Positions 4,987 through 30,491 of a stretch of DNA of 64,000 nucleotides are shown here, piece after piece. The notes under the pieces were generated by a model. It had not been told where the DNA came from and made no database searches. It saw only the letters and a list, made by a program, of their open reading frames with translations. Position 1 is the stretch's first letter. Every line of letters starts with the position of its first letter. Origin of the DNA: a virus (lineage: Duplodnaviria; Caudoviricetes); the IMG/VR virus record IMGVR_UViG_3300010348_001841; one strand, written 5' to 3'. A program made the translations under genes and the position numbers.

Positions 4987-5650
4987 TTTTTTGTTACCGG
5001 TTCATCAACCACACAGGTGCAATAGAGTCTGAATAGAATTGCAGTCTCCTCATCCTTGAAGGAATAAGATACCATTCTATTTTCGCCGTGGTCCTTTGGA
5101 TCAAGTCTTTCTGTGTGCATATTAGGGCCATGCTGACGGAAAAATCCACGAGGAAGTTTACCAATTTCACTAAAAAGTGTAGTAACCTTATAATTGAAAC
5201 TCATATTAAACCTTGGTTGAAAATTTTAATTTGAATGTGATTGCATCGCATTCATTTTTGAATCCGTAGGTTACCTCCCTACTTTTGTCAAACATACTCA
5301 ATGCTATATTGGAAACAACTATATAGTCAATCGGCGGGGATGATTCGATAAGCCAATCAACCAATTCAACCGGAGCAATTATGTCCTCGGTGATAATAGT
5401 CACCTTAAAGGGATAATATCTCTTTATGTGTTCAAAATCCTCAGTCGTTGCTGCCGAACCGTATTTTAAACGCAAGAGCATCTTCTTCTTTCTTAAAGTA
5501 GTAGTCTAATTCAGAAGTGTCTTCGCCGTAATCCAATGGATCTTTATAACGACGCCAGCTGTTCTTCTCTAGTTTATCTAACCACAGACCAACATTAGGC
5601 GACCAGTCACGACTCCACATCATTACATGATACGGATAATCCTCAAACAA
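4983..5650 (-). other. three short paralogous ORFs (4983-5204, 5206-about 5460, 5441-5650)
   Basis: Shared C-terminal motif YxFKxExxAxxF(K/R). Confidence 0.55.
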
Positions 5651-6089
5651 GTTCTTTAAGCTCCAGATACATCTTATGATACTTCTCGATTCGTTTAATG
5701 TCCTTCTCGGTAATCCCCTTCAGTCGACGAATGTCACTGTTATGGCGCAGATCAGCAAGCTTCACACGGATACCATCCTTGTTGGCCTTGATCTTAGCCA
5801 TATATTCATCATGCGACTCGCCGGGAATTTTTGTAACCGAAGCGATGCCGGCAAGAATACGCTCACTAAAGCCCATCTCACGAAGCATAGCATAGGTAAC
5901 ATATTTGCCGCGGTCTTCGATGAGATCGTGAGCCAATGCAATGCAACACAACTCTTCGTCGTCGGACTTCAGATAGTGCATTACCTTTAGGCAATGAAGA
6001 ACATAGGGAACACCACCCTTATCAAAGATACCGTCAAATTGTGACGTTACCAAAACAAGCATTTTATTGAGTGCTTCACCGCGCTTCAT
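5643..6089 (-). CDS. HD-domain hydrolase, SpoT/Mesh1-like putative (p)ppGpp hydrolase
   Basis: DKGGVPYVLH, ALAHDLIED, VKLADLRHNSD motifs. Confidence 0.75.
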   Translation of the reverse strand: MKRGEALNKMLVLVTSQFDGIFDKGGVPYVLHCLKVMHYLKSDDEELCCIALAHDLIEDRGKYVTYAMLREMGFSERILAGIASVTKIPGESHDEYMAKIKANKDGIRVKLADLRHNSDIRRLKGITEKDIKRIEKYHKMYLELKELV

Positions 6090-6110
6090 AACTTCTCCTT
6101 TATGACACTA

Positions 6111-6602
6111 TTATGCCATAGGGCTGGCGATGGCGTCAACAAGAAGTTGCTGATTATATCGATCAATAAAGAAATCTGGTGCATAGACATCACCATAATA
6201 TCTATACCAGTTTGGTTTCTCATTCAATCTCTGAGCGATGCGATCGATGTTTACCTGTATATCTTCTTTTGTAGGCCGCCAATTCATTTGGGTTATTCGA
6301 AGCCAGACAAGGGTATAATCAATTGTCTCGAAGTCAAAAGGAGCAATATTAAACCCACGCTGATGCAATTCATTAGTAAGATCGTTAAATCGCTGTTTTA
6401 AGAAAGGAAGTTTATTATAGAAGAATGTAACATGCCCTGCATTCAATGTATATTTAGGACTAATCTTCTCAATAATTGTTTCAACGGATTGTGTCTGCAG
6501 AGATCTTTTTGCCGCAGGTGCAATCATTTTGATTTCACGCCATTCGGCAAATAAATGCTGGTCGGCTAAATCTTCAACCCGAACTAAATTGATTCTTGTC
6601 AT
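6111..6602 (-). CDS. denV: pyrimidine-dimer DNA glycosylase (endonuclease V)
   Basis: MTRINLV..LADQHLFAEWREI, GHVTFFYNKL, KPNWYRY match T4 DenV. Confidence 0.9.
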   Translation of the reverse strand: MTRINLVRVEDLADQHLFAEWREIKMIAPAAKRSLQTQSVETIIEKISPKYTLNAGHVTFFYNKLPFLKQRFNDLTNELHQRGFNIAPFDFETIDYTLVWLRITQMNWRPTKEDIQVNIDRIAQRLNEKPNWYRYYGDVYAPDFFIDRYNQQLLVDAIASPMA

Positions 6603-6611
6603 AATAAAAAG

Positions 6612-6678
6612 ATGGATCACGGGTTCGAACCGTGTTCAGCATTGTAAAGAGGCTATGTTACCAAATACACCAATCCGT
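6612..6678 (-). pseudogene. degenerate tRNA-like element (loop CTTTACA; TTA or TAC reading ambiguous)
   Basis: Good D arm and T arm CACGG-TTCGAAC-CCGTG; only about 4-bp acceptor; no CCA. Confidence 0.5.
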
Positions 6679-6679
6679 G

Positions 6680-6755
6680 TGGCGCCTGGTGCAGGATTCG
6701 AACCCGCGACGCAAGGTGTTAGGGACCCCCGCTCTAACCGCTGAGCTAACCAGGC
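6680..6755 (-). tRNA. amber-anticodon tRNA (CTA), putative suppressor
   Basis: 76-nt cloverleaf; acceptor GCCTGGT/ACCAGGC, G73, CCA; anticodon loop CCCTAAC (C33). Confidence 0.8.
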
Positions 6756-6763
6756 ATACATCT

Positions 6764-6792
6764 ATTATGCATAGATGCAATATTGATGTCAA
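6764..6792 (-). promoter_or_regulatory. sigma70 promoter for the amber tRNA
   Basis: TTGACA-17 nt-CATAAT ending 8 nt before the tRNA 5' end. Confidence 0.75.
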
Positions 6793-7109
6793 TCGGTATG
6801 CTTGTACAGATTCCACCGCCTGAAGAAGTTTTGTTCTCTTCTTTCAGTAATGGGCTTTGTGCATAATGCACTGTAACCCATCGGACCGAAATCAGGCTCA
6901 TAGAACATATAGAATTCAATACCTCTTCCATCAATAGTATCTGCAATCCGCTTTAGATCATCTTGGTCCTTGGCAGAAAGAAGAATCATACTCGAGATCC
7001 CGTTTGTATCCTGGAATTTTTTGCCGGCCTCATAGCAAGCATGTCCAATCTGGACAATTTTTTGCTCAGGTGACAAATCTTCCCTGATAAACATATAGAT
7101 ATAGCTCAT
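6789..7109 (-). CDS. peptidyl-tRNA hydrolase, Pth2-like
   Basis: YMFIREDLS..KIVQIGHA, FYEPD, SALCTKP pattern of the phage PTH2-like family. Confidence 0.7.
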   Translation of the reverse strand: MSYIYMFIREDLSPEQKIVQIGHACYEAGKKFQDTNGISSMILLSAKDQDDLKRIADTIDGRGIEFYMFYEPDFGPMGYSALCTKPITERREQNFFRRWNLYKHTD

Positions 7110-7426
7110 TGTATTTCCTTTCCGTGGACCTTAATTTCCTTAGCATACGAAAGAAGTTGTTGCTTCTCCTCTTCATCAAGCCAGGTAATCAGGGTTGAAT
7201 TCTTGATTGCCCAAAGTGCTGATTCAAGAGATCCATACGGGTATGCACCGTTCTCAAGCTTAACGGGGTTGGTGATGGGTTTGAATGATTTCTGAAGTCT
7301 GCTAATCGCACCATTCTTGCCTTGTTCTTTGACAAGGGCCCTGTAAATGCACAGAGCAGCGATATCTTCACGAGTAATTTTACGTTCGGCAGCGAGTGCC
7401 TTCCATTGTTGACGAATGTCTTTCAT
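7106..7426 (-). CDS. hypothetical protein coupled to the Pth-like gene
   Basis: Start MKDIRQQ with AGGAAG RBS; ATGA overlap with next gene. Confidence 0.7.
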   Translation of the reverse strand: MKDIRQQWKALAAERKITREDIAALCIYRALVKEQGKNGAISRLQKSFKPITNPVKLENGAYPYGSLESALWAIKNSTLITWLDEEEKQQLLSYAKEIKVHGKEIQ

Positions 7427-7430
7427 TTTG

Positions 7431-7537
7431 TTCTTCCTATAAAAAATTTGTTGATTAGAAAAATTGCGTTGCACAAGATTGAGCTAATCAATTCTTAGGA
7501 AGAATTGTAATAAACCTACATCATAGTAGTTTCTCCA
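7431..7537 (-). promoter_or_regulatory. minigene ATG-ATG-TAG plus RBS-sequestering hairpin
   Basis: GGAGA RBS, minigene 7524-7516; TTCTTCCTA (7504-7496) pairs with TAGGAAGAA (7439-7431); inner stem TTGATTAG/CTAATCAA. Confidence 0.7.
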
Positions 7538-13913: not shown

Positions 13914-13992
13914 TGGCGGTCCGTACGGGATTCGAACCCGTGGTCTCCTGCGTGACAGGCAGGCGCATTAAGCCAAGCTATGCTAACGAACC
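13914..13992 (-). tRNA. tRNA-Asp(GTC)
   Basis: Loop CTGTCAC, G73, CCA. Confidence 0.9.
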
Positions 13993-14002
13993 AAATATAA
14001 AT

Positions 14003-14337
14003 GATTATTCTATAGCCGGGATTCTGTGCCCTTTCGGGTGACAATCATTTGACTACGGCTTATTTACCGTCCTCCCCAGGTTTCAATCTGGATCCTTGGT
14101 GCACCAACCCGTTTCCTCGGCGAGCAGCGTAAGGAAACTGTTTGGCTTGCTGCGGTATCGTTGTGGTAAAGGCGTGTCAGAACTCTAATAGTGCAGGGCA
14201 CTTTCATGCCTGGGACCATATAATCCTTTTCCTTACCGGCGTTCTATTAAAGATAACACTCCCACAGAGCGATGATTCCTGCTCTTTGCAGTCCCGAACT
14301 TCCTCTATACTTTCGTACAGCGATTGTCCGAATAATC
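14003..14337 (-). ncRNA. rnpB: RNase P RNA
   Basis: P1 GATTATTC/GAATAATC; P2 GACAATC/GATTGTC; GAGGAAGTTCGGG and ACAGAATCCCGGCTATA P4 motifs; GCAAG in the CR-IV region. Confidence 0.85.
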
Positions 14338-14343
14338 AAAAAC

Positions 14344-14540
14344 ACGTTGCCCGGTCGGTGACCAAACCGACCTCGCTTAATTCTTATCTAAAATTTAGAT
14401 GAATTTTCAGAATTACATCCGAGCTGCGAACTTAGCTTTAGGATCACTGAAATAGACTCCCACCACCCTAGGGAATTACGTGGCATCTAAAGGGTACAGA
14501 TAACACCGCGCTACCGGAGCATAATTTAGTCTGGCAACGT
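14344..14540 (-). ncRNA. unidentified structured RNA upstream of rnpB
   Basis: Terminal stem ACGTTGCC/GGCAACGT with internal hairpins. Confidence 0.5.
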
Positions 14541-14551
14541 ATTAGGCTATT

Positions 14552-14821
14552 TTACTTGCACGCCTTTAGTTTTGCAACCAATTCTGTCTCGTAACCGAGA
14601 TGAAGTTGACGATCTGCCAGCAATGCTTTGGCTTTTTCGTGAATATCTTGATCTTCTGTCAATTTATCAAAATTAAAATCAGGCTTGCTTGGGTATTCTT
14701 CCTTACAGGGAACAGGTACAGGGATTTCAACTCTCTGTGTTTCAATTTTTACAACAGGTACGGTGGCTCCGCAGCCTGCAAGAAGAAACATCGGCAGGAT
14801 AAGCAAATTACTTACGCGCAT
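14552..14821 (-). CDS. o-spanin-like lipoprotein
   Basis: LAGC lipobox, Pro-rich, overlaps the upstream TM/coiled-coil gene. Confidence 0.7.
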   Translation of the reverse strand: MRVSNLLILPMFLLAGCGATVPVVKIETQRVEIPVPVPCKEEYPSKPDFNFDKLTEDQDIHEKAKALLADRQLHLGYETELVAKLKACK

Positions 14822-15215
14822 TTCTTATCTCCTCATTGATTAATGCATTGGCAGCATCGCATTTATTCAAATTCTGCGGAGCTTTCCTATTCATAAGGTC
14901 CTCTGCCTTCTTCTTATAAGTCTCTGCGACTGCCTGTGCCTTCTTTACTTCTTCGGCATTCTTGGCTACTCGCTCATCTCCCTCTTTCTTTAACTTCTCA
15001 ATGGCATCATTCTGAACCTTGATCTCACCTTGTAATTGCTTGAGATTTGCCTGAGATGTCTCAAGCAACGTCTGTACCGCTGCCTTCTCGGCCTCAAGTG
15101 TTTTATTGCTTGATTTTAGCAAGGAAATGCGAAAACTTTGCCCGGCCAATGCAAGGGCAAGTATTGCCATGGCGACCAGCGCCTTATTCTTCAGTAAAAA
15201 TTCGAGTATGAACAT
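14808..15215 (-). CDS. i-spanin-like protein
   Basis: N-terminal TM plus long coiled coil; start MFILEF; GATAAATA late motif upstream. Confidence 0.7.
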   Translation of the reverse strand: MFILEFLLKNKALVAMAILALALAGQSFRISLLKSSNKTLEAEKAAVQTLLETSQANLKQLQGEIKVQNDAIEKLKKEGDERVAKNAEEVKKAQAVAETYKKKAEDLMNRKAPQNLNKCDAANALINEEIRNARK

Positions 15216-15352: not shown

Positions 15353-15363
15353 ATTGTAAAATC

Positions 15364-20249: not shown

Positions 20250-20255
20250 ATTATA

Positions 20256-20348
20256 TGGCGGGGAAAGGGTCGTGTCGATCGCCTACCTGTTCTTCACAAG
20301 TACATCTGTTTTCAAGACAGTGACGGAGGCCGCTCCGCATCATTCCCC
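20256..20348 (-). tRNA. tRNA-Ser(TGA) with 8/4-like fold
   Basis: Loop CTTGAAA; 8-bp acceptor, 6-bp D stem, 7-bp V-arm, G73. Confidence 0.75.
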
Positions 20349-20411
20349 ATAATAGATTTGACGGACTGCTTTGCCATTTTCGTAGCAGCCAACGATGGCG
20401 TCATCAAATTT

Positions 20412-20489
20412 TGGTACCCGGATAGAGAATCGAACTCTACACTTGCCTACTTGTAAGGAAGGTGGCTTCACCAGCTGCACTCTCCGGGC
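20412..20489 (-). tRNA. tRNA-Val(TAC)
   Basis: Loop CTTACAA, CCA. Confidence 0.75.
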
Positions 20490-20499
20490 ATATTCGTTT

Positions 20500-20573
20500 A
20501 CGCTATACAGGATTCGAACCTGCGACCTCCACCGTTGCGGGGTGGTGTTCTGGGCCTCTGAACTAATAGGCGT
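20500..20573 (-). pseudogene. tRNA-like gene, GCA anticodon with C33, bulged acceptor, no CCA
   Basis: CCACC-CCGCAAC-GGTGG; GCAGG-TTCGAAT-CCTGT. Confidence 0.6.
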
Positions 20574-20614
20574 CTCTGTATAAAACCAATGTATACAACA
20601 TTGATAATAGTGAA

Positions 20615-20690
20615 TGGTGCCGCGTGATGGATTCGAACCACCCACGCCAGGTTCTTCAGACCTGCGCTCTACCACCTGAGCTAACGCGGC
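20615..20690 (-). tRNA. tRNA-Phe(GAA)
   Basis: Loop CTGAAGA, CCA. Confidence 0.9.
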
Positions 20691-20994
20691 ATATTAGTGC
20701 TATCTTTGATAATCCTGATGGATAGCGGCACCAATGGATGCCAGACATCTAGTCCACAGCCCGGCGATTACATTTTGGTGGACACGCCGTGGAGTCGAAC
20801 CACGTAAACCTATTATCTGGTATCATCCCGAGCACGGCCCATAAATCAAAAGTTTATACAATACGCCACCTGGCCCCTTCCGGGTTTGGACTTACACCTT
20901 GCTTCCAGGCTATTTATCGGCAGAATTTGAACCATTAACCTGAGCGAATGTATAAACTACAGCATCACGAGTGTCTTTCGTGACTCTGCGCTGT

Positions 20995-21072
20995 TGGTAC
21001 CCACGGACGGATTCGAACCGACACTGTACAGGTTTTGAATCTGCTGCCTCCTACCTATTGCGCTACGTGGGC
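20995..21072 (-). tRNA. tRNA-Leu(CAA), short variable region
   Basis: Loop TTCAAAA, CCA. Confidence 0.85.
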
Positions 21073-21073
21073 A

Positions 21074-21517
21074 TTATTTCTTAACTGCAATCATGATAAC
21101 AACACATCCAGATTCGTTATCTTCTAACGTCATTGAATGAATTTTTTCATGATTGAACTCATACATGTTGAATAATTCAACTTCGGCGGTCTCATCTTCT
21201 GCTGTAATCACCGAACGACCCGAGGGCAACACAACAGGAATAACGTATGTTTTTGGCTCAAAAACCGTCGGATCTAGCAGGTCAACATGTGGCTCTGCGC
21301 CCCGACACACACTAAAATAGACATAGTCTAATTTATTCACTGCTACGCCTACAGCCATTGAGACATTAAATAACATCTCAACATCGGCACCATCAATGCG
21401 CCTAATCTGAAATTTAGCAGGGGTGTTTGTTTTGTAATTCTCAAACTTGATTGTATCCGCATTAGCTACAATCTCTTTCGGAATAAAAACTTTGCCGTGA
21501 TTGATAATTTTATTCAT
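21074..21517 (-). CDS. cupin/2OG-Fe(II) oxygenase-like protein
   Basis: PHVD...IHSM metal-ligand pattern in a beta-rich protein. Confidence 0.5.
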   Translation of the reverse strand: MNKIINHGKVFIPKEIVANADTIKFENYKTNTPAKFQIRRIDGADVEMLFNVSMAVGVAVNKLDYVYFSVCRGAEPHVDLLDPTVFEPKTYVIPVVLPSGRSVITAEDETAEVELFNMYEFNHEKIHSMTLEDNESGCVVIMIAVKK

Positions 21518-21568
21518 AATATTTGGAGCCGGCATGTGGATTCACACATGGATCACCCGGCATTGATC

Positions 21569-21645
21569 TGGACGCTAGGGTGGGAATCGAACCCACTCTT
21601 TTTACTGTTTTGCAGACAGCTACCTTCCCAATCGGCCACCTAGCG
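21569..21645 (-). tRNA. tRNA-Cys(GCA)
   Basis: Loop CTGCAAA, U73, CCA. Confidence 0.85.
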
Positions 21646-22032
21646 GTTCTGTTTATAGAGGTAACGACAAATTTTCGCATGCTCCCGTCTTCTTTCATAC
21701 GGACCCACATACACCTTTATCGGCTTCCTTGCCCCGGCGGGGTGGGATGAAACCGGCTTAGTTACATATAGAATTCGTTGCAACGGTATCTATTTTGAAG
21801 TGAGACACTTTTGGATTGACCTGTTGTATCAGCCTACGCTGCGTCGCTCTCAAAATTATAACGTGACGATCGTTGCGGGTCAACCGCGACCTCGGAGACC
21901 AACATTGTTAAGAGGTTTCTTCCGCGCTCTATTCTGAGCTAAACGATCTAAAATTGAATGAAGCACATCGTACAACGTGCGCCCTTCTGAGGTCTTAAAC
22001 AGCGTCCCGTACACGCCGATATGCTTCAAACT

Positions 22033-22106
22033 TGGGGTGAAACCGGGAATCGAACCCTGGCCTACTGTTTCACAGACAGTCTTGCTACCACTACACTAGA
22101 ATCACC
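22033..22106 (-). tRNA. tRNA-His(GTG)
   Basis: Loop CTGTGAA; G-1:C73. Confidence 0.9.
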
Positions 22107-22241
22107 ATAGAATCAAAATTCAGAGTAACCTTATAGGAACACCAATAACCGTAGAACGGCGCCTACATCTTCTTGCAGATGCTCTCAAGGAGCCACAAAC
22201 TCAAGATGTTTTTGTTAAACTAAAAGTATCTGAAATATAAC

Positions 22242-22357
22242 AGGTTCGCATTTATATCCTACCATTAGACGACAGTGGTGACCAACTCCACCGCTGGGAT
22301 TCGAACCCAGATCTTCTTTTTTACAGAAAGAATAATTTTGGCTGCTGAAACGAACCT
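22242..22357 (-). ncRNA. CAGCAA-stem RNA copy 3 (complete circularly permuted tRNA-Tyr-like domain)
   Basis: AGGTTCG/CGAACCT stem; order is anticodon arm (CTGTAAA), T arm, looped acceptor, D arm. Confidence 0.8.
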
Positions 22358-22374
22358 AAAGGTCAAATAAAATC

Positions 22375-22476
22375 GGGATGGGTGACAAAAGCCGGGACTC
22401 GAACCCTATCGTCACACCCCCAGCGGGCCGGCTCGCAGAAGTTTTGGTTGCGAATTTAGATTGCTGCAATCATCCC
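22375..22476 (-). ncRNA. CAGCAA-stem RNA copy 4
   Basis: GGGATG/CATCCC stem, TTGCAGCAA, GGG-TTCGAGT-CCC T loop. Confidence 0.7.
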
Positions 22477-22485
22477 TTAGAAAAT

Positions 22486-22923
22486 TTATGTCAGGATCAA
22501 CGAAGTTGTCCTACTTAACTCTTCAATCAATTCGTCGACCGAATAAAAAACTCCAGTTGCAAATTGATACATTACATCCCACCGATCCGGATCATCAAGT
22601 AAAATATATCCGGGTTTACCTGTTCCAATCACGTATCCAAGTTCAAGGTGAGCTGACTTACCTGCTGGAAGAGCCAGTACTGCTATCTCATTCCTATCAA
22701 GGTGATGTTTATCAAATTCATAAACATGTTTTGCAGCATAACCCTGCAAGCCCTGTTTATAGTTATTTCCCTTTGCAATCTCATATTTTTGCCAATAATC
22801 GTCTGCTTCGGGTCCTGCAGCATACCAGTCATCAAACACCTCATGGCCGGCTGCTCTTAACTTTGACGCAATGGTTCCAATTTGCGGATTACGCAAAGAA
22901 CCGATAAGATAAATTTTTGACAT
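22486..22923 (-). CDS. nucleoside 2-deoxyribosyltransferase-like protein
   Basis: KIYLIGSLRN, FDKHHLD, GKSAHLELGY; own TTGACA-type promoter at about 22941-22969. Confidence 0.65.
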   Translation of the reverse strand: MSKIYLIGSLRNPQIGTIASKLRAAGHEVFDDWYAAGPEADDYWQKYEIAKGNNYKQGLQGYAAKHVYEFDKHHLDRNEIAVLALPAGKSAHLELGYVIGTGKPGYILLDDPDRWDVMYQFATGVFYSVDELIEELSRTTSLILT

Positions 22924-22975
22924 CTTTTCTCCTTTTAAAGAGCATAGCACACGAAATGCCTGATGTCAAATTGTC

Positions 22976-23053
22976 TGGTACCCAAGGAGGGATTCGAACC
23001 CACACTGTACGGTTTCTAAGACCGGTGCCTCCTACCTATTGCGCTACTTGGGC
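22976..23053 (-). tRNA. tRNA-Leu(TAG), short variable region
   Basis: Loop CTTAGAA, CCA. Confidence 0.85.
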
Positions 23054-23129
23054 ATTATATTTTCGAAGTAGGTACCCGTCTGCCAACCCACTGTGGATCC
23101 AGCAGAACACCCACGTATACTTCAAATTA

Positions 23130-23204
23130 TGGCGGGCCATCAAGGATTCGAACCCTGACCGACAGTTTTGGAGACTGGTATGCTGCCAATTACACTAATG
23201 ACCC
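23130..23204 (-). tRNA. tRNA-Trp(CCA)
   Basis: Loop CTCCAAA, G73, CCA. Confidence 0.9.
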
Positions 23205-23279
23205 ATATAGTATTGGGCTTCCCACCCAAGTTGTCTGTTGCCTAGGGCATTATTCAGGTTTACAGATAATCTATCATTT

Positions 23280-23355
23280 TGGCTCCACGACTAGGATTCG
23301 AACCTAGCTCATTCGGTTAACAGCCGAGGGTACTCACCAAGAATACTATCGTGGA
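23280..23355 (-). tRNA. tRNA-Asn(GTT)
   Basis: Loop CTGTTAA, G73, CCA. Confidence 0.9.
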
Positions 23356-23362
23356 ATAATCT

Positions 23363-23974
23363 TTATAAAATATTCAAATCTCTCAAATCTTTATGCATAA
23401 GGACAGTCAATTGTTTCTCTTTAGGAAACTGTGACCATTTTGCACTATCTTTTTCGGTTTTATAACCTTTTATCTCTACATATTCATTTGTCTCTGGAAG
23501 ATAAAAATCTGGAGTATATCTTCTTATTTTATTCTCAAACTCATAAACAAATGATTCAGTATTTCTTTTCCAAAGTGTACCTAGTCTATCAAGGTAACGC
23601 ACATACGCCACTTCCCATGATCCGTGCAAATCTACACCATTGTAATCTATATGCATGCGCCTTGCCAACGATGTATGCCATTCATTATTGACAACCTTTT
23701 TGGCTATTGTGTCTTTTCTTTTTTGTTTTGTTTCTAGAGATTCTTTTTTATTCTTTATCTTGGCAGCATTTGACATTTTGCTTTTGGATTCAACTGTGGC
23801 TGTTTGACAGCGAATATCACCGGAAAGTCCAGTATTCCAGGCCCTCTGTCCTTTGCGATTTCCAGTTGCCCATTCGGATGGGTCTTTTCTTGTAGGATTT
23901 AGTTTACAGAAAACTTCGTGTGCCCTATGAGACTTTATACTTACGCACACCTTGTTACAATATTTGCAATGCAT
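23363..23974 (-). CDS. Zn-finger plus PD-(D/E)XK freestanding endonuclease
   Basis: CKYC..HEVFC; GSWE, YTPDFY..YVEIKG. Confidence 0.8.
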   Translation of the reverse strand: MHCKYCNKVCVSIKSHRAHEVFCKLNPTRKDPSEWATGNRKGQRAWNTGLSGDIRCQTATVESKSKMSNAAKIKNKKESLETKQKRKDTIAKKVVNNEWHTSLARRMHIDYNGVDLHGSWEVAYVRYLDRLGTLWKRNTESFVYEFENKIRRYTPDFYLPETNEYVEIKGYKTEKDSAKWSQFPKEKQLTVLMHKDLRDLNIL

Positions 23975-24195
23975 CTTCTATTTATCAAACTAAGTCCAGT
24001 CCATGCACCAAGCTCGGGTTTCGCGGAATAGAATATTTCGGAGTAGCAGCGGGGTAGTCCCAAATGACAATCCACATACTCCTGCTCATAACCAATGTGG
24101 CCACATTGGTACATGCATTTAGATTGATGCATATAGGAATCGAACCTAGTCCCACAGCCCTAGTCGAGCTTAGCCTCCAAGGAATACATCAAATT

Positions 24196-24271
24196 TGGTG
24201 TCCAGAGTAGGACTCAAACCTATAACCGCTCGCCTATCAAGCAAGTGCTCTATCAATTGAGCTATCCGAGC
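24196..24271 (-). tRNA. tRNA-Ile(GAT), divergent
   Basis: Loop TTGATAG; mismatched acceptor; CCA. Confidence 0.7.
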
Positions 24272-24272
24272 A

Positions 24273-24584
24273 TTATATCTTGCCCTTAAGGGCATTTACG
24301 GTCTCTTCTTCGGGAATATCGCTATAGCGCGGAATCTCCGGATCATATCGACCGTTTAACCATCTATAAATGGTACTTTGATAAAGCTGAGAATTCATAG
24401 CCTCTTTCTCAAGCTTAATATATGATGGCAAACTAAGGGTACACTGCACATCCATGCGTCTTTTACCCTTATTGGATTCAAATAAATGGAAATAAATCTG
24501 TCCCGGTATCTTCTCAAACTTAATATCGATTGAGAGAGATTTTACCAGACGCCAATCATCTTTCCAAAAATTGTACCAGGCCAT
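24273..24584 (-). CDS. hypothetical protein
   Basis: AGGA RBS, 103 aa. Confidence 0.6.
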   Translation of the reverse strand: MAWYNFWKDDWRLVKSLSIDIKFEKIPGQIYFHLFESNKGKRRMDVQCTLSLPSYIKLEKEAMNSQLYQSTIYRWLNGRYDPEIPRYSDIPEEETVNALKGKI

Positions 24585-24674
24585 AATATATCCTAAGTAG
24601 GAAATGGATGGGAATCACCAGCCCCACATCTACCGAAAGGTTGTTTTTGATCACTAAACTACCACTATACTTTC

Positions 24675-24749
24675 TGGAGCGGATAGCGGGAATCGAACCC
24701 GCGCCATCAGTTTGGAAGACTGTTATGCTACCACTAACACCACACCCGC
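24675..24749 (-). tRNA. tRNA-Gly(TCC)
   Basis: Loop CTTCCAA, U73, CCA. Confidence 0.9.
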
Positions 24750-24878
24750 ATAATTGCTGCCGGGTCATTTCTAACGCGATGCACCGACACCCGCGACTTA
24801 CGGGTGGGTGTACATGTACAAGGTCGGCCCACCTATCTTATGTTCTCACCTGGCACCTTTCGATGCCAGGATTTTTCT

Positions 24879-25907
24879 TTAGGCCGGCACGCCGACCCAA
24901 ATCATCAGGCCCATGCCCTTGGTCAACTTACGATTGATCGACGTGGATTGCACGTAGATTTCGTAATTGGCATGATTGCCCGGGGCAAGCTTAACATCGC
25001 CGGTGTGCGGAAGACCGAGCAGATCTCGCGCATTGAAGCCGCTGTAAACTGCACCAGTTGTCTTCTCACGGATGGCAATTTGCTTATAGCCTTGAACAGT
25101 CTCAGTCTTCTTCAGTTCGTAAAAAGCACAGCCCTTAACAAAGGTAACGCCTTGCGCTTCAACGAAATCACGAATCTGCGAACCATCCCATTGATCATCC
25201 ACTTCGTAAACATCAACCTGTTTGGAGATGTCAACAAGTTCAGACTTCACTTCCTTAAGTGTCACAGAACTCAGATCAGCATAGAACTTATCTGTGCTGT
25301 TGATGCCTGCTGCCTTTGCAGCATAGAAACCTCTGAATGCACTCTTAGTCAACGTAGTCGACTGAATCATTCCGCGCTCGCTCTGCTCCCATTCTTGGAT
25401 GTTGCCCTCTGGAATACCATAGCGAACAAGTTGTTGCTTATATCCTGCAGGAACACGAAACACAAACGTCCAACGATCGGTCATTTGCAGTTTCTTGATC
25501 AGTTTAGCGATATCATTACCGCTATACTTTCTGCTGGCGTTTTCGCCACCGTCTGTGGTAGTAAAGACCACAAAAGATACACCGGGATCATCGGCATCAG
25601 GAACGGCCTGCAGTTGTTCAACAAGTTCACCGACCGCATCAAAAAGTGGAGTACCGCGACCACGTGCGCTATAACTGGATTCGCCAATCGGCTTCAATGC
25701 CGAGACAGACGAGTTACTAACAACAGTGCGCACCTTATCGGTGTCACCGTATCCAAGTTCAACAACCGACACAATGGTATCGATGCCATGATTGGATGCT
25801 TCTTCTTTAATCGAAGAAATATTGTCATTGTAATCAACGGCAGCATGGCGTGCAATATGTGCCATAGAGCCCGAATGATCTCGTGCAAAACCGATGTAAT
25901 TCTTCAT
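24879..25907 (-). CDS. von Willebrand factor A (MIDAS) domain protein
   Basis: DHSGSM, GTPLFDAV, TTDGGENAS. Confidence 0.8.
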   Translation of the reverse strand: MKNYIGFARDHSGSMAHIARHAAVDYNDNISSIKEEASNHGIDTIVSVVELGYGDTDKVRTVVSNSSVSALKPIGESSYSARGRGTPLFDAVGELVEQLQAVPDADDPGVSFVVFTTTDGGENASRKYSGNDIAKLIKKLQMTDRWTFVFRVPAGYKQQLVRYGIPEGNIQEWEQSERGMIQSTTLTKSAFRGFYAAKAAGINSTDKFYADLSSVTLKEVKSELVDISKQVDVYEVDDQWDGSQIRDFVEAQGVTFVKGCAFYELKKTETVQGYKQIAIREKTTGAVYSGFNARDLLGLPHTGDVKLAPGNHANYEIYVQSTSINRKLTKGMGLMIWVGVPA

Positions 25908-25970
25908 GTATGCCTTTCTGTGTGGTTAGGTTGTCCGTATACTTTATAAGCATACCTATAACCTGTCAAA

Positions 25971-26090
25971 TGGTGCCGCCCCCGGGAATCGAACGCCGGT
26001 CCTACTCCTTGTCATGGATGGAATAGATTGCTGAACGTATCCTTATCAGGATCACCTTTTTAGTTGTGCTACCATTACACTAAGGCGACA
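25971..26090 (-). ncRNA. CAGCAA-stem RNA copy 5: tRNA with the motif hairpin inserted between D and anticodon arms
   Basis: TGTCGCC/GGCGGCA acceptor plus CCA, D arm, insert GATCCT-GATA-AGGATACGTTCAGCAA, loop ATGACAA, T loop. Confidence 0.75.
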
Positions 26091-26199
26091 TTATTGTGGA
26101 GCACCCGGCTAATATAGAATAGTGATTAGGACGGAGGCATAGAATTGGGCGTTCCAGAGGAAATATAACGATAGCGATCTCTGTCCGGAACATTAAAAA

Positions 26200-26275
26200 T
26201 GGTAGGCTGCCAGGGAGTCGAACCCTGCTGGTACCGGGTAAGAGCCGGTTACATCTGCCGCTCTGTCAACAGCCC
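26200..26275 (-). tRNA. tRNA-Lys(CTT)
   Basis: Loop CTCTTAC, CCA. Confidence 0.85.
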
Positions 26276-26284
26276 ATTAATTGG

Positions 26285-26358
26285 TGGTATCCTGTACGGG
26301 AGTCAAACCCGCCTAAACTGGGTGAAAGCCAGGTGGCCTCTCGGAAGCCTAACAGGAT
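26285..26358 (-). tRNA. tRNA-Glu(TTC), divergent
   Basis: Loop CTTTCAC, atypical D loop, CCA. Confidence 0.75.
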
Positions 26359-26366
26359 ATAGAATT

Positions 26367-26440
26367 TGGTTGTCCCACAAGGTATCGATCCTTGGTCTCT
26401 CGATTATCAGTCGAGTGCTCTACCATTGAGCTATGGGACA
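26367..26440 (-). tRNA. tRNA-Ile(GAT)
   Basis: Loop CTGATAA, CCA. Confidence 0.9.
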
Positions 26441-26444
26441 AATA

Positions 26445-27026
26445 TTATCTTTTATAACATTTATCAAAATGCCATCTCTTCATTACATTATTTCCACCAA
26501 TTATTCCGCAAACAGGACATGTTATGGTCGAATGCACGATATTTTCTCTTTTCTTTCTATTTGGATACTTACGACCCTTTGTGCTTTTTCTTTCAGACTT
26601 TTTTACACCTGTTGAAATATTCTTCTTATGCTCTTCAGATTTGGGTATGCCCGGTGCTCCAGATCCCGGGGATGATATTCCTTTATTCCAGCCGCCTGTT
26701 GATGCCTTGATGCCTTTATTCCAACTTGGTCGACCAGGTGATGCACCATCTAAACCATTTTCTATATCTAGATTGGCCCATTTGTCAGATTTTACAATAT
26801 CAAAGAATTCAGAAATAAATGTCGCAGCTTCTATAAGATTTTCCATATTTAGAAACTGCTCGGCCCATATAGTTTCGATTTCTCTGCCGTGCTTCTTTAT
26901 ATGTTTTACCCAATACTTTCCAGAACCCAAATATTTATAAGGATCTTTTCGTGTTGTTTTTCCGAAATACAGAAGGCCGGTCTGTTTATGTTTCTTTATA
27001 TAAAGATATGTAGGAATAAATATCAT
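26445..27026 (-). CDS. GIY-YIG-like homing endonuclease
   Basis: YLYIKKH..GLLYFGKT..YLGSG; ENGLDG; C-terminal CPVC..RWHFDKC. Confidence 0.8.
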   Translation of the reverse strand: MIFIPTYLYIKKHKQTGLLYFGKTTRKDPYKYLGSGKYWVKHIKKHGREIETIWAEQFLNMENLIEAATFISEFFDIVKSDKWANLDIENGLDGASPGRPSWNKGIKASTGGWNKGISSPGSGAPGIPKSEEHKKNISTGVKKSERKSTKGRKYPNRKKRENIVHSTITCPVCGIIGGNNVMKRWHFDKCYKR

Positions 27027-27073
27027 ACTGTATTTATCTTTTACCAACTGAGCTAAAATCCCGGCATGCGTTA

Positions 27074-27340
27074 TTAATGCTGCACGGATCCTTTGAAATC
27101 AGTGAATTTGTATCTTATTACAACTACCAGACAAGCAATGTTGAGTGCGTAGTTAAAGAGCAATGGCCAATCTTTCTTTGGAAAAATATAGGCAGCGGTT
27201 AGCAATTCACCCACTAACCACATTGCGAGAAATAAATTTGAAATGCCCCTGGAATGCTTTTGTTTATACGATTGCCAGGCTAAAGGAATAGCACACAATG
27301 CAAGTAAAACACTTCCAATCCAACCAATAATGCTTATCAT
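27074..27340 (-). CDS. PQ-loop/SemiSWEET-like membrane protein
   Basis: Three TM helices; IGWIGSVLLALCAIP..GIS..WPLLFNY. Confidence 0.7.
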   Translation of the reverse strand: MISIIGWIGSVLLALCAIPLAWQSYKQKHSRGISNLFLAMWLVGELLTAAYIFPKKDWPLLFNYALNIACLVVVIRYKFTDFKGSVQH

Positions 27341-27610
27341 AATGAAAAGTATAATGATAGCTGATCTTAAACTATCCTGCGACCAAGCAAGGTATTCGGG
27401 CTATACATCTCGGGTCTTCAAAACCGTGTTCTATTTAGTGGACTGCCATCCACAGGCCCTATCAGTAATATAGTACGACGCTGGCAGGCCATCGTAATAC
27501 ATCATATCATTAATCGGAAAGTTAGGTTCGGGTTTCATCACTTACCGTCGTGTTATGCTTTCGCAGAGCGATCCGGGATAGTACCGACTTTATAATTACT
27601 CTAACTAATA

Positions 27611-27689
27611 TGGTCTGGGATGCAAGATTCGAACTTGCGACCTCTCACTTCCAAGGCGAGCCGTCTGACCTGACTGACAATAATCCCAG
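27611..27689 (-). tRNA. tRNA-Pro(TGG)
   Basis: Loop CTTGGAA, C1:G72, A73. Confidence 0.85.
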
Positions 27690-27695
27690 AATGTT

Positions 27696-27774
27696 TGGTC
27701 TCCGATGAGGGATTCGAACTCTCATTGTGTCACACCCCAAATGTGCTGCCATAACCTGGTTAGGCGAATCGGAG
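27696..27774 (-). tRNA. tRNA-Pro(TGG)
   Basis: Loop TTTGGGG, CCA. Confidence 0.85.
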
Positions 27775-27834
27775 AAATTATTAGAAGCGTAGGGAGCGTC
27801 ATGAGCCGATTATACATTCTTCTAAACTAAAAAA

Positions 27835-27910
27835 TGGTGCTCCCACAGGGAATCGAACCCCAATCTACGGACTACAAAACCGTCATAATCAGCCATTATA
27901 CTATAGGAGC
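27835..27910 (-). tRNA. tRNA-Thr(TGT)
   Basis: Loop TTTGTAG, CCA. Confidence 0.85.
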
Positions 27911-27920
27911 AAAACTAAAC

Positions 27921-27976
27921 AGAATACGCATTTGCTTTCATTTACCGTGAAATTTTATATTTGCAGTAGGTATTCT
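27921..27976 (-). ncRNA. CAGCAA-stem RNA copy 6 (CTGCAA variant, anticodon-like hairpin)
   Basis: AGAATAC/GTATTCT stem; TTTCA-CGGTAAA-TGAAA. Confidence 0.7.
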
Positions 27977-27983
27977 TTAAAAC

Positions 27984-28059
27984 TGGCGCCGTAGAAGGGA
28001 ATCGAACCCTCTTGAATCCGCTAGACAGGCGGTTGCACTCTCCAAAATGCGACTACGGC
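27984..28059 (-). tRNA. tRNA-Asp(GTC)
   Basis: Loop CTGTCTA (U37), G73, CCA. Confidence 0.8.
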
Positions 28060-28459
28060 ATGTAAATTTGAGAGCCCAGCTATCCTTGCGGCCTCGCTGG
28101 ATTGTCTCGATAAGGCAAGTCTTAGACCATACTTCACGGTAAATCTGAGTCTGCTGAGCAGCGCCGCTACTTGGGACTCGAACCTTTCGTCTATCTCAAA
28201 ACTTGTAATGAGCATAAGGCGTGCGTTTCCTGTTGGTCAGTTATTCCCCTCCTGGGACCAATCCGCGCCTGGGATCGGGGGGCCAGATGTTGTCTGCACA
28301 GAAACGCCTACATCATACGTTGCACCGTAGTGCTCAGTAGTTTTCGACAACCCACGCCTTATGCTCACTAAAATTTGGTGGAGATATTGGGCCTACGTAG
28401 TTACCCAACCCACCCGGGTTTCCCACGGATGGTGCTTTCACGATGCATAACCCCTAAAA

Positions 28460-28534
28460 TGGTGGACCGTAAGGGACTCGAACCCTTATTACCGAGTTGC
28501 AAGCCCGGTGTAATTCCCCCTATACTAACAGCCC
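28460..28534 (-). tRNA. tRNA-Ala(TGC)
   Basis: Loop CTTGCAA, G3:U70. Confidence 0.9.
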
Positions 28535-28542
28535 ATAAAAAT

Positions 28543-28629
28543 TGGCAGGCCCTGGTGGGATCGAACCACCGAAACCAGACTGGTACCTGTTTTGGAGACA
28601 GGCGGGTTTGTCCGCTTCCCTAAAGACCT
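28543..28629 (-). tRNA. CCA-anticodon (Trp) tRNA on a Tyr-like long-V-arm body
   Basis: Loop CTCCAAA, D region GGGAAGCGGACAAACCC, V-arm, G73. Confidence 0.75.
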
Positions 28630-28634
28630 ATAAA

Positions 28635-28721
28635 TGGTGGACCCTGATAGATTTGAACTATCGAAACCTGTGGTGCCGGATGTACATGCCCGGTGGGTTT
28701 GCCCGCTTCCCTAAGGGATCC
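28635..28721 (-). tRNA. Tyr-like tRNA with 8-nt anticodon loop
   Basis: Loop CATGTACA; paralog of 28543-28629; A73, CCA. Confidence 0.6.
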
Positions 28722-28730
28722 ATTGAAACT

Positions 28731-28814
28731 TGGTGGAGCGTTCAGGTAACGATCCTGACTGGCCTTGACGACAGTTTTACAGACTGCCCCACCTCCTTAG
28801 TGGTCTACCGCTCC
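28731..28814 (-). tRNA. tRNA-Tyr(GTA)
   Basis: Loop CTGTAAA, V-arm, CCA. Confidence 0.85.
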
Positions 28815-29357
28815 TAATTCTATAACATAGCCGGATTTATCTATAATAGATAAATTTTGTAATTTTTCCTTATCCCATAATTCTATAACAATATTGGGAT
28901 AATCCTGCAAAAATAGATCAAACTTTTTTCTATTATTTTCCCTAAAATATCCCTTTACTTCTATCAATTTTTCTAATATACCGTCTTTATAGATAAAAAA
29001 ATCTGGATAATAATATCTACCATCTGACAATTTGTATCCCTTTTCGGAATATTTCCAAATTATACTGATGGAATCTAAGTATCTTGCAACCCCTGTCTCC
29101 CACCGAGAATCCATCCTAACATCTTTATAGAAACTTTGTCTGTCACCTCGATGAGTTGCATTTTTATTTCCCATCTTGGCCTTTGCTATTTTCTTTATTG
29201 TTTCCTCAGTATGACGCCTGCCGGAAAACATTCCCTTCTTACCTGTAGTCCACGGTACATATTGTGTACGTGCTGGGTTGGCTTGACAATGCATTTGATG
29301 CATTGAGATTGAACCTCTATTGATGGTTTCTTTATCGCAAAATAAGCATTTATACAT
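28797..29357 (-). CDS. Zn-finger plus PD-(D/E)XK freestanding endonuclease
   Basis: CLFC..HQMHC; DSRWE, YYPDFF..LIEVKG; stop lies inside tRNA-Tyr. Confidence 0.8.
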   Translation of the reverse strand: MYKCLFCDKETINRGSISMHQMHCQANPARTQYVPWTTGKKGMFSGRRHTEETIKKIAKAKMGNKNATHRGDRQSFYKDVRMDSRWETGVARYLDSISIIWKYSEKGYKLSDGRYYYPDFFIYKDGILEKLIEVKGYFRENNRKKFDLFLQDYPNIVIELWDKEKLQNLSIIDKSGYVIELGAVDH

Positions 29358-29940
29358 ATTGTATTTATGTAAAACAGACTGTAAGCAGAGACAGAACACA
29401 ATAAAAATGATACTGATGCAACTTACCACCTTTCAGTGGTCACGGCAAGTCTCTAGGACTACTCCTCTTTGGCCGGTTGCCATCGATGAAAACATCGTTA
29501 CTGTCTCTATCGGCAACGTTTTCGTCCTCTACATATTTGTAGTCAACGCACGGTCTCATATTTTACAGATTCTGCTGGCATATGAGCGACTTAGCCTTTT
29601 ATACGGCTACCATGTGCATTCCGGACCTCTCGATGCCCGGACCCCAACATACCGGGTGATATATCTGCCAAGATAGGAGCCCGGGTGTATTCAGTATCGA
29701 AACTTTGTAAGCACTTCATACGAAATGCCTATCGTAAAGTACACAACAGATCATCTAGCGGTAGTAAGCGCCTAGAGTGGATATGTACTTTACGATCGGG
29801 TTTTTACCACCTGCGTTCTCTCCACAGGCTTCTCATCCCCCGACACGCCCTCATTATTAGCCGGATGTTTTTATACAGTGCCCAGCAGGATCGCGTTTCC
29901 CACACACTGCCCGTGATACGCCTTAGCTTAACGCGGAGAA

Positions 29941-30032
29941 CAAAAAACCGCCTTGGTTTCCTTTGGCGGCTTCCTTTTATAAACTTTCTGGATACTTTTT
30001 ATTTGTGTCCAGACTCCTTATAGAAGGAAGCC
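29941..30032 (-). terminator. intrinsic terminator with overlapping antiterminator (attenuator)
   Basis: GCCGCC..GGCGGT-TTTTT; competing 14/15-bp stem 30032-30018 with 29982-29968. Confidence 0.75.
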
Positions 30033-30157
30033 ATCGTAATCGGATCTTGTTCAGGATTATTCGATGTACTAAACCCGACCCAATAACCGGCGCAGAGGCG
30101 CTCAGCGGCTAAGGCCACCTTATGCATCGCGATCGATTTTGTTGAGTTAGTAAACAT
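29999..30157 (-). CDS. 52-aa leader peptide containing all 20 amino acids
   Basis: MFTNSTKSIAMHKVALAAERLCAGYWVGFSTSNNPEQDPITMASFYKESGHK*; stop in the antiterminator loop. Confidence 0.7.
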   Translation of the reverse strand: MFTNSTKSIAMHKVALAAERLCAGYWVGFSTSNNPEQDPITMASFYKESGHK

Positions 30158-30208
30158 TTATAAACTTTCCAATTATACGAAACTATGCCGACCCCATGTC
30201 GACAAAGT

Positions 30209-30491
30209 TATTTATCATCTTGACAATTTCTTGCCTGTTTTGAAGCACTTTAGCACATGCTCTAGTGATTCGTCAAGTTACACCAGTTATCTTCTAAGAA
30301 ACGAATATATCGTGCATCAAAGATATTTATCATCTGCGATTCTACACATACTTTATATAGGTGTCAAATCAACCATTCTTTGTACCGTTTTGCGCCTGGT
30401 ACCACAGCAGGATAGCAGTTTGTAACCTCCTGTTACACCTTGCTTATACATATCGTAGACCAACTGTAGCACTATTTTAGATAGGTGTCAA
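30209..30491 (-). promoter_or_regulatory. promoter cluster driving the tRNA island
   Basis: TTGACA-17-TACAGT (30491-30463), TTGACA-17-TAGAAT (30367-30339), TTGACG-18-TAAAGT (30276-30247); GATAAATA at 30331-30324 and 30216-30209. Confidence 0.75.

Follow-up and report, generated by a model that had tools for sequence, protein, structure and literature searches.

Attenuation, read-through gating and sequestration of the Shine-Dalgarno (SD) sequence are known kinds of control. The trpL, hisL, ilvL and thrL leaders are leader-peptide transcription attenuators of amino-acid operons, and, to our knowledge, the genes reported to be under such control until now are amino-acid and synthetase genes. 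In the translation attenuation of ermC and cat, a leader open reading frame (ORF) unmasks a sequestered SD upon drug-induced stalling, and the prfB gene of E. coli, encoding release factor 2 (RF2), is autoregulated by means of an early in-frame UGA and a +1 frameshift. Here, we consider a stretch of 64,000 nucleotides (nt) from a virus (IMG/VR record IMGVR_UViG_3300010348_001841; hereafter the window, meaning the whole stretch of DNA that was analysed), of which positions 5643-30491 appear to form a translation-supplement island of a jumbo myophage related to Pseudomonas phage PA5oct. The island would supply tRNAs for all 20 amino acids, an amber suppressor tRNA, a transfer-messenger RNA (tmRNA), an RNase P ribozyme, an RF1-type release factor, a Pth2-fold hydrolase and a (p)ppApp hydrolase. 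Separate, conserved cis-acting switches that read the state of translation probably stand in front of three of these parts, the gates of the release factor and Pth2-like genes being opened by the phage's own supply of tRNAs. The features themselves and their conservation were observed directly, and from them we infer the direction in which each switch would act and the purpose that it would serve.

Phages are known to carry some of these parts. In phages that have changed their genetic code, the code-change modules consist of a suppressor tRNA, a release factor and an aminoacyl-tRNA synthetase, and it has been suggested that in-frame stops set when particular genes are expressed (Borges et al., bioRxiv 10.1101/2021.08.26.457843). 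Phage XacN1 encodes tRNAs for all 20 amino acids, CUA suppressor tRNAs and an annotated peptidyl-tRNA hydrolase, and its authors found no targets for the CUA suppressor tRNAs (PMC5852040). Similarly, phage RsoM2USA encodes tRNAs for all amino acids but Ile and is reported to possess one CUA tRNA, and the paper describing it names no specific suppressor target (PMC8504454).

The first of the switches is an in-frame stop codon within the gene for a putative RF1-type class I release factor. An earlier note on this DNA, made by a model from the sequence, had listed an RF1-like factor among the parts of the island, and that identity stands: prfA is the best model at 180.6 bits, against 106.4 for prfB and 51.7 for prfH, the GGQ motif is present as GAGGQH, the RF-1 domain is recognized (PF00472, E 1.3e-18), and the codon-recognition tripeptide PPT aligns with PVT of T. 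maritima RF1. Domain 1 is missing, however, as the protein aligns to RF1 residues ~106-333 (domains 2-4 only), with the match starting at position 106 of the 347 positions of the prfA model; the score falls below the prfA equivalog cut-off of 400, and the full four-domain architecture is absent. An RF-H (prfH) identity for a factor without domain 1 was rejected, at 52 bits versus 180 for prfA.

The reading frame of this gene extends past the annotated start, over one TGA, to an SD-led ATG, and the 38 residues upstream match the PCRF domain of RF1. The TGA (12358-12356) is codon 39 and lies under the Trp of the RF1 'RKGW' motif; past it, homology stays in frame 0, and in the +1 frame a stop is reached after five codons. 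A single in-frame TGA in the same Trp column was found in 17 of 17 relatives checked, at 45-71% identity, in a set made up of six IMG/VR contigs (L001-L006), a complete 369-kb genome that is the closest complete relative (G007), five short metagenomic contigs (L087-L091) and four further genomes (G008-G011). The surrounding codons vary (GGA TGA CTC, GGC TGA ACT, GGT TGA ACT, GGC TGA AAG and AAT TGA AAG), and the base after the TGA is A or C in the window and L001-L006. The 222-residue 'uninterrupted' release factor proteins in databases, where checked, are code-4 gene calls on short contigs. In four relatives, the gene lies within arrays of at least 40 tRNAs that include a tRNA-Trp(CCA). The UGA thus appears to be a selected recoding site, and not a product of decay or of a change of code.

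Synthesis of the full-length release factor would require ribosomes to pass the UGA at codon 39 by read-through. This codon is probably read by tRNA-Trp(CCA), supplied by the phage, in which case output would follow the balance of tRNA-Trp against host RF2. Because an RF1-type factor should not read UGA, the gate would report RF2 versus tRNA-Trp, unlike the autoregulation of prfB. A tRNA-like element on the minus strand at 7830-7899 was also observed, with UCA in a 6-nt anticodon-type loop (CCTAG-CTTCAA-CTAGG); it is called by neither ARAGORN nor Rfam, resembles a second tRNA-like element with a UUA anticodon further along the island, and could bear on UGA read-through.

The genetic code of the phage bears directly on how such stops are read. 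Among window ORFs of at least 150 residues, TAA is used 39 times, TGA 14 times and TAG 3 times, and the longest ORFs, including long structural ones, are open under code 11 for up to 1154 codons; the genetic code of the phage is therefore the standard one, with TAG avoided. Genome-wide recoding (code 4 or 15-like) was rejected, as TGA is an ordinary stop and the core ORFs are without many in-frame TGA or TAG codons. A codon-usage scan for further in-frame stops was too noisy, with antisense frames scored as coding, and nothing was drawn from it.

The second switch is an amber micro-leader that precedes an operon consisting of an ORF of ~106 codons without a family match (ORF106), a Pth2-like gene and a CUA tRNA. 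The Pth2-like protein, also among the parts listed earlier, reaches 19.8 bits against PF01981 (E 1e-3), below the cut-off of 23 and hence short of the gathering threshold, and a few of its 81 homologues possess a precomputed PF01981 match. An AlphaFold model built from an alignment of 28 homologues has a pLDDT of 87.7 and a pTM of 0.82, and 12 of its 13 Foldseek matches at E <= 0.001 are Pth2 structures (2zv3, 3erj, 1q7s, 1rlk, 1wn2 and 1xty among them), with TM scores of 0.66-0.75 (top ones 0.70-0.75) and a probability of 1.00; the 13th match, 2gax, is a protein of unknown function. This model supersedes a single-sequence model with a pLDDT of 63 and no significant Foldseek match. Residues Q20, H23, E71, D73 and C83 are invariant. 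The modelled product has a Pth2 fold, and it is predicted to be a hydrolase.

Conservation of the gate was followed in 11 loci, namely the window and ten IMG/VR loci with Pth2-like proteins of 57-70% identity. The arrangement of SD, ATG ATG TAG, six codons and TAA is present in nine of the 11, and in every one the Pth2-like gene is directly followed by a CUA tRNA. The codons that would be translated upon read-through span an anti-SD sequence, TTCTTCCTA (7504-7496), and they retain the peptide [VI][YF]x[ND]S[ST], one locus having exchanged TCT for AGT with Ser retained. Of 8 aligned relatives, 7-8 preserve the anti-SD:SD helix, and the inner stems of the hairpin persist with sequences that differ between relatives. 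Two lineages (L092; L095/L101) have, in addition, an amber codon within the Pth2-like gene, at codons 36 and 56. The bare 9-mer ATGATGTAG occurs twice in the window versus 0.64 expected, which is not significant alone, and its weight comes from its conservation in relatives. The second occurrence (28316-28308) is without an SD, lies in a structured intergenic stretch, and was treated as chance.

These observations suggest that the operon is closed translationally by the anti-SD:SD hairpin, which would be opened only by a ribosome reading through the UAG of the nine-codon micro-leader. Read-through would most simply come about by the phage's own CUA tRNA winning against RF1, and an amber gate with its own CUA tRNA is most simply seen as a feed-forward trigger, not a failure signal. 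Two neighbours of the module were noted. Just upstream of the micro-leader, at 7655-7745 (minus strand), a long hairpin with arms TTTATGAATTGTGTA and TACACAATTCATAAA has a counterpart in G007 (L083 5418-5520) in which the arms are conserved and the interior differs, and it is probably a handle-type non-coding RNA. Further upstream, a 297-residue protein with a C-terminal zinc ribbon (8046-8939, minus strand) adjoins the Pth2 module in G007 too (L083 4193-5119), and ORF106 has a homologue in the same genome.

Distant homologues of the Pth2-like protein (33-40% identity) are found in cultured jumbo phages. In Serratia phage BF, Yersinia phage fHe-Yen9-04, Cronobacter phage GAP32 and Ralstonia phage RsoM2USA, the frame opens with an SD, an ATG, one or two variable codons and a TAG; in BF, no in-frame ATG, GTG or TTG follows within ~23 codons of the TAG. 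The gene is unannotated in BF, fHe-Yen9-04 and RsoM2USA, and the GAP32 annotation is truncated to an internal start. The XacN1 domain is part of a longer fusion ORF that lacks an amber codon. Amber gating of a Pth2-fold gene appears to be old and widespread in this supergroup, and in the lineage of the window the gate appears to have moved into a separate micro-leader that governs an SD-sequestering hairpin. The gated gene would give phage amber suppressors a natural target, and the cultured phages BF, fHe-Yen9-04, GAP32 and RsoM2USA are ready experimental systems in which to study it. Because gene callers split genes of this kind or switch to code 4, such genes are mis-annotated systematically.

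The third switch lies ahead of the tRNA array, where a cluster of strong predicted sigma-70-like promoters is followed by a leader ORF, an antiterminator and a terminator. The box AGATGATAAATA is repeated in the promoter cluster, with six occurrences in the window versus 0.67 expected, and the promoter and AGATGATAAATA blocks are conserved in L082. The terminator consists of a CCGCC/GGCGG stem and U6, its 5' strand sharing bases with the 3' side of the antiterminator, and codons 42-47 of the leader pair with 29983-29968. Leader homologues were found at one IMG/VR locus and ten metagenome loci (L082/L109, L102-L108, L110 and L112), yielding ten distinct complete leader ORFs of 49-54 codons; the same pair of competing hairpins and a U tract comes after each of them. 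In all seven loci for which ARAGORN calls tRNA genes downstream, these lie 0.3-1.2 kb from the leader. The minimum-energy fold is the antiterminator in eight of the ten homologues and the terminator in two, from which the two states appear to be near-isoenergetic, and in several homologues the antiterminator covers most of the 5' strand of the terminator. Compensatory changes are found in the inner stem, and also in the terminator stem between the window and the other homologues.

All 20 amino acids are present in each of the ten complete leaders, a property of 0.2-0.5% of 52-residue windows and of one in 65 similar-sized ORFs of the window. Nineteen of the 20 amino-acid types fall in invariant columns of the leader, so that the family amounts to about one observation (p about 0.002-0.005). 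The best reading of the leader is as a putative attenuator. Smooth translation to its end would favour termination, and slow or absent translation would favour read-through into the tRNA genes, in what would amount to trp-type attenuation without region 1. A homologue in L112 (1874-2026) has a frameshifted C-terminal third, yet retains all 20 amino acids and the RNA hairpins.

Several observations weigh against reading the leader as a sensor of tRNA supply, or against the broader view of switches opened by phage tRNAs. The leader peptide is strongly conserved, and because the third positions of its Ala GCN codons vary freely, selection appears to act on the peptide itself; instead of a neutral 'test' sequence, the leader may encode an arrest peptide or a small protein with a function of its own. 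Codons matched by phage anticodons are not over-represented in it (37 of 51, versus a background of 74%). In the RNAalifold prediction, a conserved block near the start of the ORF also pairs with the 3' strand of the terminator, and the switch may be more complex than two hairpins. The terminator of the window is the weakest of its family. The first tRNA lies 1.1 kb past it, and many promoter-like sites lie within the island; because of these internal sites, the leader would gate at most the first tRNA block. For the UGA gate, a tRNA with a clean UCA anticodon was not found.

The island also appears to encode its own RNase P RNA, 5 nt upstream of a tRNA-Asp gene. Its score is under the RF00010 gathering threshold of 100 bits, but the earlier assignment is borne out by the E value (Table 1), by an alignment to the whole model (positions 1-367) and by covariation. 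Both P4 strands are retained, the P4 consensus being aligned by GAGGAAGUUCGGG and ACAGAAUCCCGG, and ~120 nt in the specificity-domain region are unaligned to the model. A distant blastn search with the RNA returned no matches, and phage homologues of 336-341 nt were identified in G008 (86 bits) and G010 (68.5 bits), in the latter directly upstream of the release factor gene; G007 possesses a partial copy in the syntenic place. In a three-way alignment of phage RNase P RNAs, 17 of 97 predicted pairs exhibit compensatory changes, including pairs of P1 and the P4 region. The element is probably a real phage RNase P RNA, predicted to be active, and a near full-length RNase P ribozyme would join the list of phage-encoded translation parts. 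Neither an RNase P protein (RnpA) nor an aminoacyl-tRNA synthetase was seen among the ORFs scanned, no dedicated search having been made.

The remaining parts of the island are as follows. All ARAGORN calls between 5643 and 30491 fall on the minus strand, 38 of them tRNA-type genes and one a tmRNA, and 35 canonical tRNAs with 26 anticodons cover all 20 amino acids, as had been claimed; most or nearly all of them encode CCA. Within the array, small ORFs and genes for homing endonucleases lie between the tRNAs. Two adjacent 87-nt tRNAs with long variable arms (28635-28721 and 28543-28629, minus strand) include one with an 8-nt anticodon loop, called 'tgta', and another called Trp(CCA). Between two tRNA genes, 19332-19439 (minus strand) resembles the Rhizobiales small RNA Atu_At1 (RF02496), at 55 bits versus a gathering threshold of 60 (E 1e-6). 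The tRNA-like element with a UUA anticodon is possibly degenerate. The best-conserved protein of the island is a 342-residue protein of unknown function (24879-25907, minus strand; phrog_26613), 81% identical in L082.

The tmRNA is of the permuted type and exceeds the gathering thresholds of both Rfam models (RF01850, 119.1 bits versus 84; RF04321, 117.8 versus 47), upholding its earlier identification. No SmpB was found in the window by tblastn with the SmpB of G007. In G007, SmpB (L083 66-491) lies immediately upstream of the permuted tmRNA, and the corresponding place in the window is occupied by an unrelated 172-residue ORF (11266-11784). The protein described earlier as a SpoT-like HD hydrolase (~150 residues) has an HD dyad and matches phrog_990 (2e-51) and the N-terminal HD domain of spoT_relA (E 1.7e-6). 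It also matches Aph1, a (p)ppApp hydrolase, and the protein appears to be an Aph1-like (p)ppApp hydrolase, this substrate being predicted.

Table 1. Positions of the features discussed in the text; those of the last row refer to loci of cultured phages, all others to the window.
Feature	Position	Strand	Description
Small HD-domain alarmone hydrolase, Aph1-like (putative)	5643-6089	-	PDB 7SMG, E 6.4e-24, residues 7-146
Weak tRNA-like element, UUA anticodon, without CCA	6609-6680	-	ARAGORN; Rfam tRNA 25.4 bits, below gathering
Amber-suppressor tRNA	6680-6755	-	Anticodon CUA, C33, G73, CCA encoded; Rfam tRNA 55 bits
Pth2-fold protein (modelled), 106 residues	6789-7109	-	Pfam PF01981 and structure model
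First ORF of gated operon, ~106 residues	7106..7426	-	No family match; conserved upstream of Pth2-like gene
Hairpin sequestering the ribosome-binding site	7424..7504	-	Anti-SD 7504-7496 pairs with SD TAGGAAGAA at 7439-7431; ATG of next ORF at 7426
Amber micro-leader	7495..7536	-	SD GGAGA 7536-7532; ATG ATG TAG 7524-7516; six codons; TAA 7497-7495
Permuted (two-piece) tmRNA	10857-11299	-	ARAGORN and Rfam; tag peptide ANDAFYGEVALAA
RF1-type class I release factor without domain 1 (putative), 225 codons	11795..12472	-	ATG at 12472 with SD
tRNA array	13914..28814	-	36 ARAGORN calls (35 canonical, one with 8-nt anticodon loop)
RNase P RNA, bacterial type A-like (probable), 343 nt	13997-14339	-	RF00010, 64.5 bits, E 1e-17
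Antiterminator and terminator (predicted)	29942..30032	-	30032-30017 paired with 29983-29968; terminator 29975-29942
52-codon leader ORF with all 20 amino acids	30000..30157	-	Last codons form the 5' strand of the antiterminator
Sigma-70-like promoter cluster (predicted)	30247..30737	-	TTGACA-17-TATAGT, TTGACA-17-TACAGT, TTGACA-17-TAGAAT, TTGACG-18-TAAAGT (consensus scan)
Opening of Pth2-like gene in cultured phages	BF L113 1480-1500; RsoM2USA L114 1480-1500; fHe-Yen9-04 L118; GAP32 L116		

Structural genes of a myovirus (tail sheath, baseplate wedge and major head protein) occupy the right half of the window. The relationship of the window to PA5oct is suggested by the major head (capsid) protein, which shares 77.5% identity with that of this Pseudomonas jumbo phage; for jumbo phages of Sinorhizobium, Erwinia and Serratia the corresponding values are 66-71%. 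Contigs on which the window's own proteins occur reach up to 241 kb. At the DNA level, a megablast search of the island against 50,697 phage records revealed no resemblance beyond two 76-nt tRNA-like matches.

Whether the parts of the island form one system or a collection of separate modules can be judged from their arrangement in relatives. Gene order in G007 mirrors that of the window (RNase P-like RNA, release factor, SmpB, tmRNA, micro-leader, Pth2-like gene, CUA tRNA and DenV), but the HD hydrolase lies ~220 kb away from this block. In five other relatives that bear the release factor (G001-G005), the tmRNA is at least 100 kb from the release factor gene, and the Pth2-like gene, the HD hydrolase (one weak match) and the RNase P RNA are absent or elsewhere. 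Across relatives, the tmRNA, HD hydrolase, release factor gene and Pth2 module are tens to hundreds of kb apart. For the structural gene that neighbours the island (30734-31399), 70 IMG/VR loci were found, and none of the 20 loci scanned has tRNAs near the homologue; the position of the island is therefore not conserved. As the parts are scattered in relatives, the island as one conserved unit was rejected, and the switches appear to be independent modules that are clustered in this phage, not one regulon.

Several GIY-YIG and HNH homing endonuclease genes interrupt the island, and at least six homing-endonuclease-like ORFs were noted (9830-10171, 10393-10890 on the plus strand, 12447-13130, 23363-23974, 26445-27047 and 28797-29429), comprising GIY-YIG proteins with repeated NUMOD-like motifs and HNH proteins; one such ORF lies between the RNase P RNA/tRNA-Asp block and the release factor gene. 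The listed parts are co-oriented, as described earlier, all of them lying on the minus strand, but the island as a whole is not strictly so, as two ORFs inside it (9083-9741 and 10393-10890) lie on the plus strand. These same ORFs and the homing endonucleases, together with the missing SmpB, argue against a self-contained island, and the scattering of parts in relatives, the internal promoter-like sites and the homing endonucleases do not fit the single regulon that had been proposed. In contrast, the three cis sensors named earlier are all located where they had been placed and are conserved in diverged phages (17/17 for the UGA, 9/11 for the amber codon, 10 loci for the leader). Because of this conservation, conditional, translation-dependent expression of the gated parts is a reasonable expectation from sequence comparison.

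The reading that we consider probable, in which the release factor and Pth2-like gates exert feed-forward or timing control by setting phage tRNA-Trp and CUA tRNA against host RF2 and RF1, resembles the code-change idea of Borges et al. and has to be weighed against others. The earlier note had proposed a counter-defence regulon, in which each part is induced by the failure that it repairs and answers defences that target tRNA or translation. Loss of tRNA would be sensed by the leader, termination failure by the release factor gate, and peptidyl-tRNA or termination stress at the amber minigene would open the Pth2 operon. Alarmone-family toxins are known to act on tRNA, and the island also encodes an Aph1-like (p)ppApp hydrolase; short minigenes, such as the bar minigenes of lambda, load cells with peptidyl-tRNA. 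All three switches appear real and conserved, a leader holding all 20 amino acids would allow an attenuator to respond to the loss of any tRNA, and phage tRNAs have an established role against tRNA-cleaving defences (PMC10264068, PMC11555353). The individual gates nevertheless do not fit this proposal well. The UGA gate, not being read by an RF1-type factor, would report the balance of RF2 and tRNA-Trp and not a defect that RF1 would repair, so that induction by the failure repaired does not hold for the release factor gate. The amber gate is accompanied by its own CUA tRNA in 11 of 11 loci, and would open without any failure of the host. Moreover, the scattered parts in relatives indicate that selection is not acting on one regulon. 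A role in counter-defence of this kind is accordingly viewed as unlikely.

More doubtful still is a single translation-surveillance circuit, in which the three switches together would detect defences directed at tRNA or termination and answer with the matching spare part. The leader would then report global tRNA sufficiency, the UGA the contest of RF2 with tRNA-Trp, and the amber codon that of RF1 with the phage suppressor, and an RNase P ribozyme of the phage's own would free tRNA maturation from the host.

An equally doubtful view holds that the switches sense nothing and merely limit dosage, with the stops keeping the release factor and Pth2-like protein at a few percent because an excess is harmful, and the leader being a leaky terminator after the gene of a small protein. 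Fixed low read-through is a known means of setting a protein ratio, the leader peptide is conserved like a protein, and the leader hairpins overlap by few bases and co-exist in the minimum-energy fold of two of the ten homologues. Low dosage could, however, be reached more cheaply with weak ribosome-binding sites or promoters; the amber gate and its matching suppressor tRNA go tightly together (11/11), and the wiring of the micro-leader to an SD-sequestering hairpin suggests a switch rather than a fixed leak. Finally, that the stops are artefacts of pseudogene decay, sequencing error or an alternative code (TGA as Trp, TAG as sense), as the code-4 reading of the release factor gene by gene callers on short contigs and the presence of a suppressor tRNA in the phage might suggest, is barely credible and already contradicted by the retention of the UGA at one column in 17 of 17 relatives of 45-71% identity while neighbouring codons change, by TGA ending 14 of 57 long ORFs and by ORFs of up to 1154 codons that stay open under code 11, and by conservation of the amber gate in independently sequenced cultured phages.

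With control by phage tRNA supply as the preferred reading, the closest described systems differ from the window in instructive ways. In the literature searched, which does not extend to all journals, phage RNase P RNA, a UGA-gated phage release factor and an amber-gated Pth2 gene are undescribed, and no such controls were found on a phage tRNA array, an RF1-type factor, or a Pth2-fold gene with its own suppressor tRNA. The papers on XacN1 and RsoM2USA describe no gated gene, phage RNase P RNA or leader (PMC5852040, PMC8504454), although RsoM2USA possesses a homologous Pth2-like gene. As in the phages of Borges et al., a phage suppressor tRNA and release factor are found together with in-frame stops. 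The window phage, however, has the standard code, its stops lie in the translation genes themselves and in a micro-leader, and its pairing of an RF1-type factor with a UAG suppressor is the opposite of theirs; the code-change genes of those phages are written in the standard code. The RNase P RNA resembles the bacterial type A RNA (RF00010) in its full-length model alignment, its two P4 strands and its covarying helices, and differs in being phage-encoded, in lying 5 nt upstream of a tRNA and in scoring below the cut-off.

The release factor gene resembles prfB in that a conserved early in-frame UGA interrupts a class I release factor gene and the making of full-length factor depends on recoding in competition with termination. 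Unlike RF2, the predicted factor is of the RF1 type, is phage-encoded and is without domain 1, and the event would be in-frame read-through at a Trp position, with neither a CUU UGA C sequence nor an SD-like stimulator. The micro-leader is akin to ermC and cat in that a tiny upstream ORF precedes an anti-SD:SD hairpin of the next gene that ribosome occupancy would open, the signal in this case being that a suppressor tRNA reads through a UAG at codon 3 (or that RF1 fails), and not drug-induced stalling. Single stop-codon read-through events thus appear to control a standard-code phage's own translation factors. The leader follows the trpL type in that an antiterminator, overlapped by a short translated ORF, is in competition with an intrinsic terminator before the regulated genes; the genes in question are phage tRNA genes, ahead of which attenuation here appears, all 20 amino acids are present with none enriched, a clear 1:2 pairing is missing, and the peptide sequence itself is conserved. 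The window adds a near full-length RNase P RNA, the proximity of all four devices in a single phage of standard code, and a leader with all 20 amino acids ahead of an array that serves all 20.

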